Below the pieces are notes generated by a model that was given only the letters and a program-made list of their open reading frames with translations, was not told the DNA's origin and did no database searches. A stretch of DNA of 64,000 nt from Escherichia phage N2. This document shows positions 3-41,156 of this stretch, in pieces. Position 1 is the first letter of the stretch, and every line of letters starts with the position of its first letter. A program made the translations under genes and the position numbers. Where the stretch lies: sequence record ON645936.1. One strand, 5' to 3'.

Positions 3-350
3 TGTCCACATTGCGGTAAGTCTGGATTAAGCGGGAATATGAATCGATGGCATTTTGATAACTGCCCAAATCACCCCAATCCTAAAGTTAGACCGCCAAT
101 GTCTAAAGAACACAGAAATAATATCTCAAACGGGCTTAAAGCAATCGTTCTTGAAGAAACATCCTGCGAATTCTGCGGAATGATAGGCAAGAAATGCGTT
201 ATCGCAGCGCATAGAAATTTCTGCAAGAAAAATCCAAATGGACGCAAGAAAACTGAAAAGACTGGTACTTGCGTCCATTGTGGTAAAGTTACCACTTTCG
301 GAAATTTATCAAGATGGCATAATGATAATTGTAAATATAAACCTAGCTAA
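3..350 (+). CDS. HNH-family homing endonuclease, C-terminal part (5' end lies outside the window)
   Basis: Frame 3 is open from base 3; repeated Cys/His modules (CPHCG...RWHFDNC, CEFCG, CVHCG...RWHNDNC) resemble the C-terminus of the HNH ORF at 62159-62971; opposite strand to flanking gene 46. Confidence 0.5.
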   Translation, partial: CPHCGKSGLSGNMNRWHFDNCPNHPNPKVRPPMSKEHRNNISNGLKAIVLEETSCEFCGMIGKKCVIAAHRNFCKKNPNGRKKTEKTGTCVHCGKVTTFGNLSRWHNDNCKYKPS

Positions 351-2031
351 TCTTAGCTAAACTAAATCTACCAACTTTTTCCATTTGAATGTGCTGACCA
401 TATTCCTGTGGGTCATGGTCTTTATGCGAAATTATGAAGAAGTTGGTATCCTTCAAACCATCTAAAATTTTAGCCACATTTTTAATACCTTCAGCATCAA
501 ATGCACCGTCATACACTTCATCAAGAAATAAACAACTTATTTTAACACCTGAAACTTTTTCAGCAATATCACGCCAAGTAAATAAAAGAGCAATATCAAT
601 TCGTGCTTTTTCACCTTGACTAAATGAAGCATAACTAAAATCTTCACGACCACGGGATTTAATTGTCTCATTAAATTCTTCATCTAATGTAAACACATAA
701 TCCGCTTCCATTATTTTAAGATAATGGTTAATCTGCTTATTAAATAATGGAATGTACTTTTTAATAATAGCGCCTTTAATACCAGAATCTTTGAGCATAT
801 CAGTCAAAATTCCTCTATGGTATTTTTCCATTACTAAATTAGTTTTTGTCTTAACAATTTTATCAAGTTCTTCTTGAAGCAGTGCTATTTCATCAGCATG
901 GTCAATAAACTCAGATGATGCTTTTTCTATAGCCGCTTTAACTTTTTTAGCTTTATCTACCGTCGTGATTAGAGATTGCTTTTTATTGCGAATATCATTC
1001 GCCAACGTCTGCTGGGTTTTAATATTATCTCGGTATTCGTCAACAAGAACTTTTAAATTATCACGATGTGTTGAAAGCTGTTCAAATGAATGCGTACATT
1101 CAGAAACTTTATCTTTAATTTTAGAAACAACTTTATCACCAGAACTTAATTGTGACAAACAGGTTGGACATAATCCACCTTCGTGATACATATTAATGAC
1201 TTTATTATACGAGTCAATTTTTGATTTAATTAAAAATGCTTCTTGACCGATTTTATTAAATGCATCAGTCGGGTCTTCATCCAAAACAATATTAACTAAT
1301 CTTTCATTAGCTTCTTCTATTTCCGATTTTAACGTTCTAGCTTCTTTCGCCAAATCATCATACATATTCTGCAGACGAGTAAGGTTATCACCAGTTAATT
1401 TTTTCTGGCGTTCAACGTTATCATTATATATTTTAATTTGTTGGATAATACTATCTTTTTTAACATCAAGCACTTGGTTTTGTGAATTTAATTCACGTAT
1501 TAGTGCTTTATTAAGCTTATCCATTTCAGCTAATGTTCCTACCTCAAGCAGGTCTTCCACAAGCTTTCTTCGCGCAGGGGTCGACAAACCCATGAAAGGG
1601 GTATACCCTGCTGTACCAAGGACAACAATCTGCTTGAAACTGGCATATGACATTCCGATAAGCTGTTCAAATTCTGCTTGGAAATCTTTACTGCTGGCAG
1701 ATTCATTAAGACGTGTACCGTTAACGGTGATTTCGAAAACGTTTGGTTTTTGTCCTCTTTTGATATAGTACTTTTTCTCATCATATTCCATCCACAGTTC
1801 AACTAAAAGTTCTTTCTTATTTGTGCTGTTTATTAATTGACCTTTCTTTACATCACGGAATGGCTTGCCAAAAAGCCCAAATGTGATGGCTTCTAACATA
1901 GTAGACTTACCACCGCCATTTCGTCCAGTAATAAGAGTTTTTTGAACCTTATCTAATTGAATGTCAACTCCATTTTGACCAACTGACATTATATTTTTAT
2001 ATTTTACTCTATTAAGTTTAAATGATTTCAT
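343..2031 (-). CDS. 46: recombination endonuclease subunit gp46 (Rad50/SbcC-like ATPase)
   Basis: 562 aa; Walker A GRNGGGKST; long coiled-coil; size and position match T4 gp46. Confidence 0.9.
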   Translation of the reverse strand: MKSFKLNRVKYKNIMSVGQNGVDIQLDKVQKTLITGRNGGGKSTMLEAITFGLFGKPFRDVKKGQLINSTNKKELLVELWMEYDEKKYYIKRGQKPNVFEITVNGTRLNESASSKDFQAEFEQLIGMSYASFKQIVVLGTAGYTPFMGLSTPARRKLVEDLLEVGTLAEMDKLNKALIRELNSQNQVLDVKKDSIIQQIKIYNDNVERQKKLTGDNLTRLQNMYDDLAKEARTLKSEIEEANERLVNIVLDEDPTDAFNKIGQEAFLIKSKIDSYNKVINMYHEGGLCPTCLSQLSSGDKVVSKIKDKVSECTHSFEQLSTHRDNLKVLVDEYRDNIKTQQTLANDIRNKKQSLITTVDKAKKVKAAIEKASSEFIDHADEIALLQEELDKIVKTKTNLVMEKYHRGILTDMLKDSGIKGAIIKKYIPLFNKQINHYLKIMEADYVFTLDEEFNETIKSRGREDFSYASFSQGEKARIDIALLFTWRDIAEKVSGVKISCLFLDEVYDGAFDAEGIKNVAKILDGLKDTNFFIISHKDHDPQEYGQHIQMEKVGRFSLAKIS

Positions 2032-2046
2032 TTTGTATCCAATTGT

Positions 2047-2901
2047 TCACAATGAAGAAAATTCTTTAACTAAAGCCTGTAATGAAGCCTCTATTGGATA
2101 TCCATTCTTAACTAACATTTTCCTAAACATCACATGTTTAGGACGATTATATGATATCCACAATTCATACAATTTATCTTTATTATCCCAATGATAGCCT
2201 TTTCGTCGAGATGCTATATGAGCTTTTCTAATCTCCGGATTTTTCCAACTAGCAGCTACTGAATTTGATATAGCTATTTTATATTCAGGTTTTGATAAAG
2301 CAGCGCGAACAGCCCTTTGGTGTTTAATTTTATTTTCTTCGTTATTAAACCATTCCCTTGAAGCCATTGAAATTTTTTGTTTTGTTTTAAAATTATTTAA
2401 TCTTTCTTTGTTATCTTTTCTATTTTTTGCTACTGAAAAATATTTTAATGCCCTTTCTCTAGCAGCATTTCTATTTTGCGGATTTGAATAATACTGTTGA
2501 AGCCTTTTTGATATTGTGTCACTTACATCTTGTTTTATAAAACTATATTCAGCAGCTATTAAATCAACTTCGGCTAAAGATAAATTTTTATATGTTTTTC
2601 CTGACATCATTCTATTTAAAGCATTTAGCATTTTTCCATTTTTACCTTTTGCTAATAAGAAATGTGCTTTGAAATGATTGAAATGACTTAAATTAACTAA
2701 ATTCCATGTAGATTTTAAATATTCAGGAAATATTGATTTAGGAAGCACGTGATGTGCTTCCGTTTTACCTGGAGTTTTAACAGTTGAATTCATAGAAATA
2801 AAATTAATGTAAGACTTGGCGTCTTCTTCGCTCAACACTAATTTTTCAACTAATTCCTTTATTAAAAATTCATCATTAATATCAAGTTTAAAATTCTTCA
2901 C
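2047..2901 (-). CDS. HNH homing endonuclease (Mob-like), inserted between genes 47 and 46
   Basis: 284 aa; GTG start with AAGGA 8 nt upstream; HNH motif EAHHVLPKS...N...H; C-terminal WKNPEIR-type repeats. Confidence 0.7.
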   Translation of the reverse strand: MKNFKLDINDEFLIKELVEKLVLSEEDAKSYINFISMNSTVKTPGKTEAHHVLPKSIFPEYLKSTWNLVNLSHFNHFKAHFLLAKGKNGKMLNALNRMMSGKTYKNLSLAEVDLIAAEYSFIKQDVSDTISKRLQQYYSNPQNRNAARERALKYFSVAKNRKDNKERLNNFKTKQKISMASREWFNNEENKIKHQRAVRAALSKPEYKIAISNSVAASWKNPEIRKAHIASRRKGYHWDNKDKLYELWISYNRPKHVMFRKMLVKNGYPIEASLQALVKEFSSL

Positions 2902-3104
2902 AAAAGATTCCTTTTAATGTATCTTTTAGACCATTCTATCATATCATCATAATCTAAAAAGTATTCATCAAATTCAGCCATGCAAACAACACCTTGTGCT
3001 GCTTTTGATGTGATATAAATTATTCCAACATATCTAGAATCTTCTTCGGTGTAATCAATATTTGCTATGAATTCATCGTTAATGTCAAATGTCGAAAACT
3101 TCAC
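2898..3104 (-). CDS. hypothetical small acidic protein
   Basis: ORF 2898-3161; likely GTG start at 3104 with AAGGA Shine-Dalgarno; N-terminus VKFSTFDINDEF mirrors the HNH N-terminus. Confidence 0.35.
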   Translation of the reverse strand: MKFSTFDINDEFIANIDYTEEDSRYVGIIYITSKAAQGVVCMAEFDEYFLDYDDMIEWSKRYIKRNLL

Positions 3105-3348
3105 AGTATGCATCCTTAATACAAGATACAGCCATATCTTGTAATGATTTAGGTGTGTCATTATCTAAAATGTTGAAGTTAAAAGATACAGCCCAGTCAG
3201 TGCAGACCGTGACCTTTTTAATACAATTATCTTCAACCTCTAACGGTTCAAACCAATATTCAATAATTTCTTTATGCCCAATATCATCTTTTACTTCACA
3301 TTCAAAATGCTGACTCATCATAACATTTTTAAATTCATCAAAAGTCAT
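3085..3348 (-). CDS. hypothetical protein
   Basis: 87-aa ORF; start overlaps gp47 stop (ATGA coupling). Confidence 0.4.
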   Translation of the reverse strand: MTFDEFKNVMMSQHFECEVKDDIGHKEIIEYWFEPLEVEDNCIKKVTVCTDWAVSFNFNILDNDTPKSLQDMAVSCIKDAYCEVFDI

Positions 3349-4364
3349 TGTGTTGCCTCTACATATAACTGATTTGCATATTGAATAAGTGCTTCGCGAT
3401 CAGAATCAGTGATGTCTGGAATTGCATTAATGTATTCTTCCATCAACGTCTGAAGAGATTGAACTTCAACTTCTTCGCTATCATCTGACTCGACAGAGTT
3501 ATCAATCTTTGACACAACTCGTAATGAATGCACAACTTTTTCTAGTTCAGATTCGAACTTCGTTAGATTTTTGTCTACCTCAGTTACTATAACACGCACT
3601 GATAGATTTGTAAAATCTTTATAGTCAATTTTTCCCTTAAATGGATACTGAATTCGACGATGCCAGGTAGTGTTGTTTGGAATAAATTCCATTCGTTCTG
3701 TTTCTGTATCAAACATCCAGAACCCACGAGAGTCATTCTCGTCACCTGCAGTTAGTGTCCATGGTGTCCCAATATATCTGACGTTAGCAGCCTCAGAGAT
3801 AGTATGGAAGTGACCAGACCACACCTCTTTATAAGTCTTAAGGAAATCAGGTTCAAGACCGTGAGATTTCATTCCTTTATAAAAATAAAATCCATTCAAC
3901 TCCCAGTGACCAACACAAAAAGAAGCAGATGAAGTTTTGATGTGTTCAAGAATTTCACCAGTATTTTCTTCGCACATCCAAGGAATTAAATCAATCAAAC
4001 ATCCGTCAAAATCTACTGTAGTAGGCTTATCATATACTTTAACATTAGGATATTTAGCCAAAAGCTCAGTAGAGGCATTTGGATGCATTACATTTTTATA
4101 GTGGAGATCGTGATTTCCTACAATAGTATGTAATGTGATTCCAACGTCATCAAGCATTTGAACTATTTCGCGAGCAAACTCCATAGTTTTATGCGTGATC
4201 GCTTTTCGCACATCAAAAATATCACCATATTGAATCCATACAGTAATTCCGTTTTTCTTAGAATATTCTATCGCTTGCTTAATTCCATCAATTTGAATAC
4301 CGCGAATCCACTCATCATCAGCTTTAACGCCTAAATGCCAATCACCTAAATTTAAAATTTTCAT
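3345..4364 (-). CDS. 47: recombination endonuclease subunit gp47 (Mre11/SbcD-like phosphoesterase)
   Basis: 339 aa; metallophosphatase motifs GDWHLG, GDIFD, GNHD; matches T4 gp47. Confidence 0.9.
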   Translation of the reverse strand: MKILNLGDWHLGVKADDEWIRGIQIDGIKQAIEYSKKNGITVWIQYGDIFDVRKAITHKTMEFAREIVQMLDDVGITLHTIVGNHDLHYKNVMHPNASTELLAKYPNVKVYDKPTTVDFDGCLIDLIPWMCEENTGEILEHIKTSSASFCVGHWELNGFYFYKGMKSHGLEPDFLKTYKEVWSGHFHTISEAANVRYIGTPWTLTAGDENDSRGFWMFDTETERMEFIPNNTTWHRRIQYPFKGKIDYKDFTNLSVRVIVTEVDKNLTKFESELEKVVHSLRVVSKIDNSVESDDSEEVEVQSLQTLMEEYINAIPDITDSDREALIQYANQLYVEATQ

Positions 4365-4527
4365 ATATCAAGAACCGTCATTGAAATGCAAAATAAAATT
4401 ATTGAAATAAATCCATCTGGAGTGCTAAAGAACCCAATCCAACATGCTCTAGTGAATAGATAAAATGCAAGAAAAAGTATCACATATCCAAGAAATATCA
4501 TTATATCAAACTCCGTATAAAGCTAAA

Positions 4528-4539
4528 GGGCCGAAGCCC
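4528..4539 (-). terminator. stem-loop GGGCUUCGGCCC (UUCG tetraloop) just after a-gt stop
   Basis: perfect 4-bp GC stem with UUCG loop on the minus strand; no clean U-tract. Confidence 0.4.
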
Positions 4540-4540
4540 T

Positions 4541-5743
4541 TTATTTTGTAATAATGTCAAACTGTTCTTTAAAGCAGAAGCTTGAATCTTGATGCTGATA
4601 CAAAAATTCATAAGCTTTTTCACGTTCACGGTCATAAAGAGCTCGGTCAGATGACAGTTCTTTAATACGTTCAAATGTTGATTCCATGTCATTTTCATCA
4701 AACCAAACGATACCGCTATCGTGTGAAATTAATGGAGTATTATCAACACGGAATTTTAAATTTTCGCCAGTAGATTTCCAAAATACCGGAATTGTTCCAC
4801 ATGCACCAAGCTCGAGATGAGTATATTCTAAAGAACGTTGTAGATATTTTTTGTCCAACTTACTCAGCTGATAACCAAATCCGGATTTACTCATGCGTTC
4901 AAGCATTTCGCTATTTACATAACGGTCGAGAATTTGCGTCGGCAAATTAGGAGCAATTTTAATTTGGTCTACTTGGTGAAGACGATAATACTCGTATGGA
5001 ATTCCTTTTTCTTTAATAGGAATGAACGCTGGAGAACGTTCCAGACCTTCCATAATAGTACTTAGTCCTGCAGGTTTAAGATGTTTTTCATGAAAATCAA
5101 ACATCTGATAAAAACCTTTCCATGTAGTCGTACGACCAATCCAACGGTTGATATTCATGTTAATTTCAGAAACATCTTTCCAGTAGGTTGACCGAACCTT
5201 CGCAATATCCATAGGAGGCTGAAAGTTATATACTGCCGGTGCTTCTTCAATATCATCAAACAGAGAAACTGTTTCAGGATACCATTCTTTCATCAGAACT
5301 TTATTAAAATCACCATTATCAGAATGGCTAAAAATAACATCAGCTCGACGAACAGTTTCTTCTAATCCCAAATTTCGGCGCAAAGAAAGAGAAGAATGGT
5401 CATGTTGATAAACTACAACACGAACAGAAGGTTTAATGTTATCAATAATTTTTTTATAGTTATTAATAGTGTCTTCTTCAACCGAAGTAGCAGGAACTGA
5501 ATTGATAATTAGAATATCACAATCATTTACCAGCTTAAGTGTTTTATCGTATTCTTTTGCCAATAAAACTGGAATTGAAAATGATTTATAATCATGCGCG
5601 CAATTACGAGTAAATGATTTATCTTTAGCATAAACCAAAGTCACTTCATGACCATTTTTAATAAACCAATCACGTTGCTCGAGTGAGAATTTTGTTACAC
5701 CACAACCTTCAAGACCTCGAGCCATAAAAATACATACTTTCAT
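4541..5743 (-). CDS. agt: DNA alpha-glucosyltransferase
   Basis: 400 aa; N-terminus (M)KVCIFMARGLEGCGVTKFSLEQRDWFIKNGHEVTLVYAKDKSFTR recognised as T4 AGT. Confidence 0.9.
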   Translation of the reverse strand: MKVCIFMARGLEGCGVTKFSLEQRDWFIKNGHEVTLVYAKDKSFTRNCAHDYKSFSIPVLLAKEYDKTLKLVNDCDILIINSVPATSVEEDTINNYKKIIDNIKPSVRVVVYQHDHSSLSLRRNLGLEETVRRADVIFSHSDNGDFNKVLMKEWYPETVSLFDDIEEAPAVYNFQPPMDIAKVRSTYWKDVSEINMNINRWIGRTTTWKGFYQMFDFHEKHLKPAGLSTIMEGLERSPAFIPIKEKGIPYEYYRLHQVDQIKIAPNLPTQILDRYVNSEMLERMSKSGFGYQLSKLDKKYLQRSLEYTHLELGACGTIPVFWKSTGENLKFRVDNTPLISHDSGIVWFDENDMESTFERIKELSSDRALYDREREKAYEFLYQHQDSSFCFKEQFDIITK

Positions 5744-31948: not shown

Positions 31949-31950
31949 TG

Positions 31951-32253
31951 TTATTTACCTTTAATTACTTTAGCTGCTTCGATAGCCGCTTGCTGAAGGT
32001 CATCCATAGACATACCGAATTTAGAAGCAAAGTTATCAATTTTCTTTTCGACAGCATTCAAAGGCTTGGCCTGTTTACCTTCATTAGCACCAGGAAGAGC
32101 GAGAATACGCTCTTTGTCAATATAAAGGCTTACAAGTTTCTTACGGTCTTTATCGGACAAATCGTGAAATGAATGGGCCTTTTTATTTATAGCGGCTTCT
32201 AATTTACCTGCACTCACTCGCGCTTCAGTAATAAATTCTTGATATGTTTTCAT
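31951..32253 (-). CDS. ipII: internal protein II (packaged head protein with capsid-targeting sequence)
   Basis: 100 aa; N-terminus MKTYQEFITEA is the T4 IP capsid-targeting sequence with an IxE prohead-protease site. Confidence 0.8.
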   Translation of the reverse strand: MKTYQEFITEARVSAGKLEAAINKKAHSFHDLSDKDRKKLVSLYIDKERILALPGANEGKQAKPLNAVEKKIDNFASKFGMSMDDLQQAAIEAAKVIKGK

Positions 32254-40502: not shown

Positions 40503-40514
40503 TGTTTTTATAAA

Positions 40515-40823
40515 CTATTTTATTCCGCGTGATGCAATTGTATTCTGTCGTTTAGCACCAGTTTGTTTAAAGTCATGATTGTCGATTTGATCGGTACGAG
40601 CAACTCCGAATGATGATTTAATCTTAGCTTTAGATCCTTTAGTTATAGAAATAAACATCTCGGAAGCCCCTTTCTTAAAGTCCGAAGCAATTACTTCAAC
40701 ACCGTTCTTAGCAAGTGACTTCAGAATTGCCTCCGCGTACTCATCATCAAGACTCGCTTGAGTATTAATAACGAATGTCTTTGGCGCAGCCGCTTCATTG
40801 ATAAATTCTTTAAATGTTTTCAT
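40515..40823 (-). CDS. internal-protein-like packaged protein (IPI-type) with capsid-targeting sequence
   Basis: 102 aa; N-terminus MKTFKEFINEA (CTS with I-N-E cleavage motif); basic. Confidence 0.6.
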   Translation of the reverse strand: MKTFKEFINEAAAPKTFVINTQASLDDEYAEAILKSLAKNGVEVIASDFKKGASEMFISITKGSKAKIKSSFGVARTDQIDNHDFKQTGAKRQNTIASRGIK

Positions 40824-40853: not shown

Positions 40854-40883
40854 ATAGTACCACAACCCTATTTAAAAGTAAAC
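40854..40883 (-). promoter_or_regulatory. T4-type early promoter
   Basis: GTTTAC-N18-TACTAT on minus strand. Confidence 0.5.
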
Positions 40884-41156
40884 TCATTTTAAATAAATTG
40901 CGTATTTTTTATAACCCGCTGACTCATGACGAAGACCCTTATCATTAGCAAAACGCTCAATGTTGTTAATTTGATTCTGGTCAAGTTCAGAGATGTCAAA
41001 CACGAAAAAGTTACGTTTGTTACCAACTGTTACATAGTCAGTTAAATCAATATCATATAGGTAATTGATGTCAGCAATCAAAGTCTTGACAGCTTTGCTA
41101 ATTTTTACTTTTTCGTTAAAAGTAGCTTCATTGATAAATTCTTTAAATGTTTTCAT
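40884..41156 (-). CDS. second internal-protein-like packaged protein with capsid-targeting sequence
   Basis: ORF 40884-41168; start taken at MKTFKEFINEA to match the CTS. Confidence 0.55.
   Translation of the reverse strand: MKTFKEFINEATFNEKVKISKAVKTLIADINYLYDIDLTDYVTVGNKRNFFVFDISELDQNQINNIERFANDKGLRHESAGYKKYAIYLK

Follow-up and report, generated by a model that had tools for sequence, protein, structure and literature searches.

Where does the gene for a putative HNH homing endonuclease that lies between genes 47 and 46 of Escherichia phage N2 take its translation start from? The question arises from a stretch of 64,000 nucleotides (nt) of sequence record ON645936.1, in its full length called the window here, in which an open reading frame (ORF) for a 284-amino acid HNH protein (2047..2901, minus strand, GTG start at 2901; identified via PHROG 655, tblastn and alignment with T4) begins much like the small gene 46.1 next to it (2898..3104, minus strand, GTG start at 3104). 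The original prediction, made from the letters of the window, had offered two explanations for this likeness: entry of the HNH gene by recombination within the start of a resident small gene, or translational control shared by the two genes. Comparison with T4 points to another resident. We consider it probable, and with good confidence, that a Mob-type HNH cassette was inserted in frame into gene 46, captured the start of that gene and spreads by homing.

Insertion into the start of gene 46

The 47–46 region of the window is 100% identical to that of Escherichia phage BYEP01 and 98–99% identical to that of many Tequatrovirus genomes; the window is a T4-like (Tequatrovirus) genome. The genes a-gt, 47.1, 47, 46.2, 46.1, the HNH ORF and gene 46 all lie on its minus strand, to which the coordinates given below refer unless otherwise indicated. 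In T4, gene 46 starts with GTG AAG AAT TTT AAA CTT AAT AGA (GTGAAGAATTTTAAACTTAATAGA) in the context AAGGA-N7-GTGAAGAATTTTAAACTT, its GTG overlapping the stop codon of 46.1 as GTGA. Pairwise alignment with window positions 1960–3130 revealed that T4 is without exactly 870 bp (2014..2883), which comprise the body of the HNH gene, a replacement initiation region and six replacement first codons for gene 46. The upstream DNA, the AAGGA, the GTG and 18 coding nt of the HNH ORF are identical to the T4 gene 46 start, and only after AAACTT do the two sequences part, with GATATT... in the window versus AATAGA... in T4. The alignment shows the insert to sit in frame 18 nt (six codons) into gene 46 and, because it follows codon 6, the HNH ORF inherits both the AAGGA-N7-GTG and the codons for (V)KNFKL. 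HNH codons 1–6 (2884–2901) formerly served as codons 1–6 of gene 46, and the remainder encodes the endonuclease. Since the same initiation region (2899..2913: AAGGA at 2913–2909, a 7-nt spacer, GTG at 2901–2899; read from the sequence and identical in T4) serves gene 46 in T4, it is the gene 46 initiation region rather than that of 46.1 which the HNH ORF appears to have taken over. The HNH GTG in turn overlaps the 46.1 stop TGA (2900–2898).

Gene 46 itself (343..2031; 562 amino acids; an SbcC-like nuclease subunit per public records; ORF list, T4 annotation) resumes 870 bp downstream as TGA ACAATTGGATACAAA ATG AAA TCA TTT AAA CTT AAT AGA. Its new ATG lies 15 nt past the HNH stop in a replacement initiation region (2029..2046: GGA at 2040–2038, a 6-nt spacer, ATG at 2031–2029, hence GGA-N6-ATGAAATCATTTAAACTT) that is homologous to the junction between the HNH gene and gene 46 in phage Melville (GGATAYWAAATGAAAWCWTTTAAACTTAATAGAG). 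The gene product now begins with MKSFKL as compared with (V)KNFKL in T4; the first 15 nt of the window gene are identical to the gene 46 start of RB69, and over nt 31–510 of the 520 nt compared (30-nt bins) identity to T4 is 90–100%.

The two gene 46 starts are recognizable as a direct repeat. A repeat search found the 13-nt sequence TTTAAACTT(G/A)ATA on both sides of the insert, with 12/13 identity and a spacing of 870: the left copy (TTTAAACTTGATA, 2880..2892) belongs to the old gene 46 start and now lies in the HNH ORF, and the right copy (TTTAAACTTAATA, 2010..2022) spans codons 4–8 of the present gene 46. As read from these alignments, the true and informative duplication is therefore that of the HNH start and the gene 46 start, (V)KNFKL versus MKSFKL, which the original prediction did not mention. 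Of its proposal, the entry by recombination within the start of a resident gene is borne out, with gene 46 and not the small gene as the resident; in the comparison of the 46–47 region with T4 the Shine-Dalgarno (SD)/GTG half of the repeat is explained by the gene 46 start and not by an origin from the small gene. On this sequence comparison, capture of the gene 46 start accounts for most of what had been seen as a duplicated start. A transposon-type target-site duplication was also considered and rejected: the repeat is only 12/13 identical (13/18 over the start block), its copies are two diverged gene 46 starts, and the sole ORF of the insert is that of an HNH nuclease.

A further short match lies across the HNH stop, where TTGTGAACAATT (2041..2052) agrees in 11 of 12 positions with the junction between the 46.1 stop and the gene 46 start, TTGTGAAGAATT (2892–2903). 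With at most one mismatch, four such sequences occur in the window where 1.3 are expected, and two of them are these junctions; the comparison is post hoc and weak. TTGTGAACAATT is possibly a relic of an older junction.

Identity of the HNH gene

The HNH ORF matches PHROG 655 ("homing endonuclease") over residues 1–282 with an E value of 8e-45 and PHROG 12434 ("HNH endonuclease") with an E value of 6e-16. In tblastn searches it is 29.6% identical to mobD of T4/RB55 over residues 47–281 (E 4e-11) and 36% identical to MobC-like genes over residues 30–236 (E 3e-22). In its predicted catalytic region (residues 48–80, EAHHVLPKS...NLVNLSHFNHFKAH, 2662..2760), H50, H51, N67, H76 and H80 are invariant among five family members from four loci. 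A T4 late promoter (TATAAATA) was not found in 1900–4600 and the HNH gene is therefore taken to be a promoter-less cassette, as are several of the T4 mob genes (PMC2988022). Scans for an endonuclease-specific promoter or terminator likewise gave no candidate that could be kept: sigma-70-like promoters and terminators were at background, and of the three terminator-like hairpins none is at a start. These sequence comparisons place the element among the free-standing HNH homing endonuclease genes of the Mob type, a known class of which it is an uncharacterised member with putative activity.

It should be noted that a word-indexed protein search with the HNH protein returned 6 clusters only, and that the diversity of the family was therefore taken from tblastn on phage genomes. 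The cluster members give no information on the history of the gene because all of them begin with MKNFKLDINDEF.

Distribution and spread

The 870-bp insert is present in 71 of 518 matching phage records (about one in seven), always in the same arrangement. In 70 of these 71 carriers it is 95–100% identical at the DNA level, and in one low-quality record 71%. The copy of T6 is intact and T4 is without the insert. Frameshifted copies are found in T2 (864 nt, 204-amino acid product) and RB68 (865 nt, 208-amino acid product); RB51 has the same 865-nt span as RB68 (1 nt shorter) with no annotated ORF there and was counted with the frameshifted copies. A variant of the HNH protein from Logan contigs, P0055, has 290 amino acids and ends with ...EFLHCEQLDTK. 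From the protein sequence it looks as if a frameshift near the end had extended the ORF so far that its TGA and the new ATG of gene 46 overlap (ATGA), by which a coupled junction would be recreated.

Outside the close relatives of the window, HNH genes with 45% identity are located directly upstream of gene 46 in the Mosigvirus AV112 and in the Gelderlandvirus Melville, most relatives of which have no HNH gene at gene 46. In both phages gene 46 is mosaic: that of Melville is T4-like in nt 1–60 and S16-like beyond, and that of AV112 carries a T4-like patch (nt 31–60) within an RB69-like gene. The clearest mosaic is contig L006 (Logan ERR10686928), which is 97–100% identical to RB69/AV112 over genes 47 and 46.2, over 46.1 for its first two thirds, and again in gene 46 beyond about nt 100. 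From about codon 47 of 46.1 to about nt 90 of gene 46, however, the HNH gene included, it is 95–100% identical to the window, so that about 100 nt of 46.1 and about 90 nt of gene 46 were carried with the cassette. Read in this way, L006 is a Mosigvirus genome into which a T4-type cassette came together with short co-converted flanks, and it would be a natural product of homing between genera. Its 46.1 (within 3001–4200 of the contig) is chimeric, being of RB69 type in the N-terminal two thirds and of T4 type in the C-terminal third.

A complementary pattern is seen in L032 and L035, which are more distant, are without the HNH gene and are about 70% identical to T4 in genes 47, 46.2 and 46. From codon 10 of 46.1 (GATGAATTC) to about nt 14–20 of gene 46 (positions 2530–2725 of L032 and L035) they are near-identical to T4, and this T4-type patch ends at the insert site of the carrier genomes. 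This is what a repair tract that stopped at the start block would leave. The element would thus spread by break-induced gene conversion (homing), dragging flanking sequence along. Its intact target would span the gene 46 start and be split by the insert, for which reason carrier genomes would be immune.

Start capture is also found in other sequences. In AV112, the first 7 codons of the HNH gene (22 identical nt, MTKTDYE) are those of an RB69-type 46.1 start, and the HNH gene replaces the body of 46.1. In Melville, the HNH gene starts with a codon that overlaps the stop of gene 47, a position used by gene 46 in STML-198 and by 46.1 in S16. At the nrd locus of UFV-AREG1, a MobC-like HNH gene (L005, 1917–2800) begins with MNYDRFYPCDFVN, copying codons 1–13 of nrdG (MNYDRIYPCCFVN) with 24/33 identical nt; the copy includes the motif YPCDFVN, and this HNH gene differs from that of T4 at the same locus. 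In T4 itself, mobC and nrdG (L027, 4850–5560) have the first seven codons in common (MNYDRIY; 20/33 nt), an N-terminal copy that is not mentioned in the review of these genes (PMC2988022). In these sequences start capture recurs at several loci; it is not universal.

With respect to 46.1 in Gelderlandvirus, it was observed that the gene is present in S16 (L008, 742–948) and precisely absent in STML-198 (L009, 742). The indel is bounded by RTGAAA at two start codons, and gene 46 of STML-198 starts on a GTGA overlapping the gene 47 stop.

The repeat between the HNH and 46.1 starts

Capture of the gene 46 start leaves a remainder to be explained. The HNH gene starts with AAGGA-ATCTTTT-GTG AAG AAT TTT AAA CTT GAT ATT AAT GAT GAA TTT and 46.1 with AAGGA-TGCATACT-GTG AAG TTT TCG ACA TTT GAC ATT AAC GAT GAA TTC, both encoding DINDEF in codons 7–12 (GATATTAATGATGAATTT, 2866..2883, reading 2883–2866, and GACATTAACGATGAATTC, 3069..3086, reading 3086–3069). 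The original prediction had located the two GTG starts (2901 and 3104), the AAGGA upstream of them, the AAG that follows and D-I-N-D-E-F correctly; the spacer of 8 nt that it gave for both genes holds for 46.1 (TGCATACT), whereas that of the HNH gene has 7 nt (ATCTTTT). Its block of about 45 nt duplicated about 200 bp apart was recovered by an independent repeat search (2858–2902 versus 3061–3105, 45 nt, 73% identity, spacing 203) and is the longest direct repeat in 1980–3400. Anchored at the starts, identity is 27/36, or 24/33 without the start codon.

As a null distribution, the first 36 nt of the 106 genes called in the window were compared in all 5565 gene-start pairs. An identity of at least 24/33 without the start codon was reached by only three pairs, all of them internal head protein paralogs, and the best non-paralogous pair reached 21/33. 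The longest in-register identical peptide run was 4 residues in non-paralogs as compared with 6 for HNH/46.1, and the degenerate 18-mer GAYATTAAYGATGAATTY, with at most two mismatches, occurs in the 64 kb at these two sites only (expected 0.13). The alignment of the two start regions is thus above chance and the repeat is real. The paralogous genes in question (40514–40823, 40883–41156 and 31950–32253, minus strand) have in common a start-anchored block, MKTFKEFINEA or MKTYQEFITEA, with 25–31/33 identical nt. Two of the three were scanned and match the internal head protein families PHROG 2667 and 7857; they served as positive controls of the start-block test, and the block is presumably the N-terminal targeting sequence of the internal head proteins.

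The repeat is, however, composite. The T4 gene 46 start recurs unchanged in its first half (SD, GTG and codons 1–6), which resembles 46.1 weakly (11/18 for nt 4–21), and what the HNH gene and 46.1 specifically share is limited to codons 7–12 (15/18).

The other explanation originally proposed, shared translational control, was considered in the form of a cis-acting element in the block (an RNA structure or the operator of a repressor) by which 46.1 and the HNH gene would be co-regulated. AAGGA, GTG and the second codon AAG are indeed found in both genes, each gene begins before the preceding ORF has ended (46.1/46.2 by 20 nt; the HNH GTG as GTGA), and translational coupling and operator-like sites are known for other T4 endonuclease genes (PMC2988022). 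Folding of 90 nt at four starts (HNH, 46.1, the present gene 46 and gene 46 of T4) gave no z-score that was significant relative to shuffles; folds at three starts were no stabler than those of shuffled sequences (z = 0.26, −1.57 and 0.38), which argues against control via an RNA element. Moreover, the SD/GTG half is the old gene 46 initiation region and is found in T4, which is without the HNH gene, and the conserved part is in frame with synonymous positions that vary, so that a coding rather than an RNA-level constraint is indicated. What is common to 46.1 and the HNH gene is an ordinary type of initiation, AAGGA with a GTG start and AAG as second codon, and a control element is very improbable. 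From the arrangement of the genes, HNH translation most likely depends on coupling to 46.1 through the GTGA, as that of gene 46 did in T4, and gene 46 would now depend on the GGA-N6-ATG that lies 15 nt past the HNH stop.

Origin of the DINDEF block

The DINDEF codons of the HNH ORF fall in insert-specific DNA. HNH paralogs elsewhere begin with MDINFKS (PYps10T and KM16, between genes 56 and soc; ATGGATATTAAT), MQDIKNK (Cognac, at another locus) and MIDAET (Melville). Because paralogs at other loci begin with MDIN..., DINDEF is probably the native HNH N-terminus, and the window ORF reads as codons 1–6 of gp46 fused to an HNH protein from its second codon on. Other types of 46.1 have at codons 7–12 NLDDEF or NLGDEF (L032/L035), NLGNGW (S16) and SIGDGY (RB69); since the first two of these carry it, DEF in turn is taken to be native to 46.1. 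On these alignments each family looks to own half of the block, DIN being that of HNH and DEF that of 46.1. Among the N-termini of 35 DUF5487 clusters, KFSTFDINDEFI and KTFEFNL[DG]DEFV are the two main haplotypes, and an RB69-type start occurs in one cluster; a recombinant between codons 6 and 7 of 46.1 was not found among the 35.

At the DNA level the DINDEF codons are identical in 15 of 18 positions within the window, and in 17 of 18 when the HNH gene of L006 is compared with 46.1 of T4. This identity is probably a short patch of recombination or conversion between the neighbouring starts, pivoting on the shared GATGAATT; of the two directions, HNH to 46.1 is slightly favoured over the reverse. 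That the DINDEF block does take part in exchanges is indicated by L032 and L035, the recombination boundary of which lies exactly at GATGAATTC.

Two other histories of the block have to be weighed. The first is that the identity of codons 7–12 is a coincidence, in that native [ND][LI][DGN]DEF of 46.1 and native DINxEx of HNH were made identical by conservative drift. The occurrence of DIN in HNH paralogs and of DEF in other 46.1 types is as expected from this. About 1 in 1000 unrelated protein pairs of the window share some 6-mer in any register, and coincidence can be demonstrated for a second small match between the two proteins, SEED versus TEED, since each of these is found natively in its respective family. 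An in-register identity of 6 residues within the first 12 codons was, however, never seen among the 5565 pairs when non-paralogous (maximum 4), the DNA identity extends to third positions (15/18 in the window and 17/18 for L006 HNH versus T4 46.1), and a recombination boundary of L032/L035 lies exactly at GATGAATTC. Coincidence is therefore rather doubtful.

The second, which corresponds to the original prediction, is that the HNH cassette was first inserted into a T4-type 46.1 start, of which 12 codons were kept, and that an ectopic crossover between the similar initiation regions of 46.1 and 46 then placed it behind an intact 46.1 and swapped codons 1–6 for those of gene 46, leaving DINDEF as a relic. 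The precedent is AV112, where the 22 nt identical to the RB69 46.1 start open an HNH gene that replaced 46.1 and where the junction, in HNH coordinates, lies within one codon of the end of the DINDEF block in the window. The 15–17/18 identity of the block in register and the nativeness of DEF to Tequatrovirus-type 46.1 are consistent with this history too. On the other side, paralogs at unrelated loci and in other genera begin with M-D-I-N or M-x-D-I-K (for example ATGGATATTAAT in PYps10T), so that DIN looks native to HNH rather than borrowed. An allele in which HNH replaces 46.1 (MKFSTFDINDEF-LIKEL) is absent, with 71 of 71 Tequatrovirus copies being in one arrangement. Exact-pattern scans of IMG/VR and of JGI metagenomes for an HNH fusion on the 46.1 start or for the DINDEF-LIKE junction (residues LIKE after DINDEF) in other contexts were empty, and a profile-based locus search found nothing in IMG/VR and only distant relatives in metagenomes. 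An origin in 46.1 is thus unlikely.

That 46.1 is the decayed remnant of an older HNH copy, with common descent of the whole proteins, can be dismissed as extremely improbable: although MAFFT can lay 46.1 along the first ~70 HNH residues and BLASTP gives E 0.001 over residues 1–39, 46.1 is a conserved small protein in three genera with a pattern of its own, the hhalign profile-profile probability is 0.1%, and Smith-Waterman scores against 2000 shuffles (z = 4.8 with the first 12 residues) fall to z of about 0 without these residues, cross-genus pairs being at chance.

A wider pattern at the 47–46 interval

The 46.1 start of the L032 type (ATG AAG ACT TTT GAA TTT AAT) is identical to gene 46 starts in 14–15 of 18 positions, and among the gene-start pairs of the window the probability of at least 14 is 9e-4. 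Because these less derived 46.1 starts are that similar, the SD/GTG/AAG region of both 46.1 and HNH may ultimately derive from gene 46. The start of 46.2 encodes MTFDEF. TGAWGAATTT has five copies in the window (1.8 expected), three of them within the 475 nt of 2866–3340, namely in 46.2 codons 4–6, in the old gene 46 start and in HNH codons 10–12; codons 10–12 of T4 46.1 read TGATGAATTC. These copies may serve as microhomology in recombination or belong to the endonuclease site, or they may be left over from start duplications. Taken together, and post hoc, the similar starts, the TGAWGAATTT copies and TTGTGAACAATT across the HNH stop are a hint, suggestive only, that one insertion after another at the start of gene 46 enlarged the 47–46 interval.

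A wider reading would join three elements. Cassettes of this HNH subfamily may live off the initiation region of a resident gene, entering 46, 46.1 or nrdG in frame a few codons in and carrying a recoded 5′ end for the displaced gene. The interval may have grown serially, with 46.2, 46.1 and HNH each being an insertion that left a copy of the start (MTFDEF, MKTFEF, MKNFKL, MKSFKL, TGAWGAATTT). And, as the patch in L032/L035 suggests, break repair can stop at the first copy, converting genomes that never keep the endonuclease. Jointly, these three are put forward tentatively, as possible rather than probable. If they were true, the DINDEF identity would be the footprint of a start-block repair event.

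Several points weigh against the readings given above. With respect to the insertion, capture and homing of the cassette, searches of the HNH ORF gave no Pfam HNH model at E ≤ 0.1, no NCBIfam hit and no PDB sequence hit, and we infer the target site, the immunity and the nuclease activity of the protein, all three, from its sequence and context. "Capture" is moreover read from structure and is not a dated history because the T4 allele without HNH could be a precise-deletion revertant; such a reversion is conceivable because the 13-nt repeats would allow it. Start capture as a universal feature of Mob genes had to be rejected, since mobD and the HNH genes upstream of 43 and 56 have MNYxKIY starts unlike those of their neighbours. 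With respect to the DINDEF patch, an intermediate allele was found in none of 50,697 phage records nor in IMG/VR or the JGI metagenomes, and T4-type 46.1 differs from the other 46.1 types in codons 7–9 only by conservative exchanges (N/D, L/I) for which ordinary divergence could suffice. With respect to serial growth, the similarity between 46.1 and 46 starts is strong only in the L032/L035 type (14–15/18), S16 having 9/18 and T4 10/18.

Neighbouring genes

Upstream of the HNH gene, gene 47 (3345..4364; SbcD-like nuclease subunit per public records; ORF list, T4 annotation) heads a translationally overlapping run of 47, 46.2, 46.1 and HNH. Gene 46.2 (3085..3348; T4_Y03C family, Pfam PF25721, E 1e-43) is the upstream neighbour of 46.1, and its stop overlaps the 46.1 start, the overlap of the two genes being 20 nt. 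Gene 46.1, the resident small gene with the second copy of the block, encodes 68 amino acids (DUF5487; Pfam, T4 annotation) with a full-length match to PF17589 (residues 1–66 of 66, E 2.2e-49) and has homologs in Tequatrovirus, Mosigvirus and Gelderlandvirus. Gene callers disagree on its start: an in-frame ATG (3111–3113) lies three codons upstream of the GTG (AAGG ATG CAT ACT GTG), and many callers take it, which results in 71-amino acid products beginning with MHTVKFSTF.... The GTG, which is the start in T4 RefSeq, is more plausible because the ATG falls inside the AAGGA box. L032 and RB69 retain an in-frame ATG at the equivalent place, since it belongs to the coding sequence of 46.2.

Further upstream are 47.1 (4361–4501) and a-gt (4541–5743), and between them a hairpin rich in G+C with a run of T behind it (TAAAGGGCCGAAGCCCTTTA TTTTGT; 4524–4543, plus strand) is terminator-like on the plus strand. 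Just past the 3′ end of gene 46, a 103-amino acid ORF on the opposite strand (39–350, plus strand) matches homing endonucleases in their C-terminal, DNA-binding part (PHROG 655, E 8e-8; PHROG 12324, "intron-like DNA endonuclease", E 8e-6). Its place is held by gene 45.2 in T4 and by a 238-amino acid opposite-strand ORF in L032. With this ORF and the HNH ORF, gene 46 seems to be flanked on both sides by endonuclease genes or their remnants.

Significance

Genes 46 and 47, which encode an SbcC/SbcD-like nuclease (public records) needed for recombination and for the breakdown of host DNA, are among the most conserved genes of T4-like phages, and gene 46 is essential. The insert would alter the translation of this essential gene from a strong SD with GTG to a weak SD with ATG, and the start of gene 46 appears to be a break-and-repair hot spot at which DNA moves between phage genera. 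The locus also illustrates a simple route by which a selfish gene that brings neither a promoter nor a ribosome site may be expressed without harm to its host. The gene also deserves attention in annotation, being unannotated in RB51 and frameshifted in T2 and RB68. And for the uncharacterised endonuclease of the classic phages T2 and T6, a testable target can now be named.

Comparison with known systems

The element is of a known kind; it is the architecture that is instructive. Like the T4 Mob genes (mobA–E; PMC2988022), it encodes an HNH domain followed by a distinct C-terminal region, lies without a promoter on a host transcript, has a start that overlaps the upstream stop, suggesting translational coupling, adjoins a conserved gene of DNA metabolism, is polymorphic in presence and absence among T-even phages, and is homologous to mobD and to MobC-like genes. 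It differs in that it is none of the five of T4, occupies the 46.1/46 junction, where T4 has no insert, begins with six codons of the neighbouring gene and supplies that gene with a substitute start; its activity and target are putative.

The closest architectural parallel is mobC or the MobC-like gene between nrdD and nrdG, where the endonuclease ORF opens with the first codons of the downstream gene: MNYDRIY in T4 and MNYDRFYPCDFVN in UFV-AREG1 correspond to MNYDRIYPC(C/D)FVN of NrdG, and from residue 30 on the window protein shares 36% identity with the MobC-like protein of UFV-AREG1. The host gene and the locus are different ones, and both copies at the nrd locus retain an ATG start.

For the shared start block, the only other gene starts of the window with comparable start-anchored identity are those with the targeting sequence of T4 internal head proteins. 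These are paralogs with a functional signal peptide, however, whereas no relationship between the HNH protein and 46.1 extends past the first 12 residues.

Endonuclease genes inside host genes are known from mobE in nrdA of Aeh1 ("genes in pieces") and from mobA in gene 39/60 of T4 (PMC2988022). There, too, a coding sequence is interrupted by a free-standing endonuclease gene, and the function of the host gene is preserved by new signals for start and stop. In these cases the host protein is split into two polypeptides that reassemble, whereas gp46 stays in one piece because only six N-terminal codons were displaced and re-supplied, with two conservative-looking changes (MKNFKL to MKSFKL). With the homing of introns and inteins, finally, the element would have in common that the insertion disrupts the recognition site, which here would confer immunity, and that flanking sequence is co-converted: the intact start sequence of gene 46 is kept at neither junction of the carrier genome. 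In contrast to these systems, neither an intron nor an intein is involved, and the reading frame is repaired not by splicing but by a duplicated and partly recoded 5′ end.

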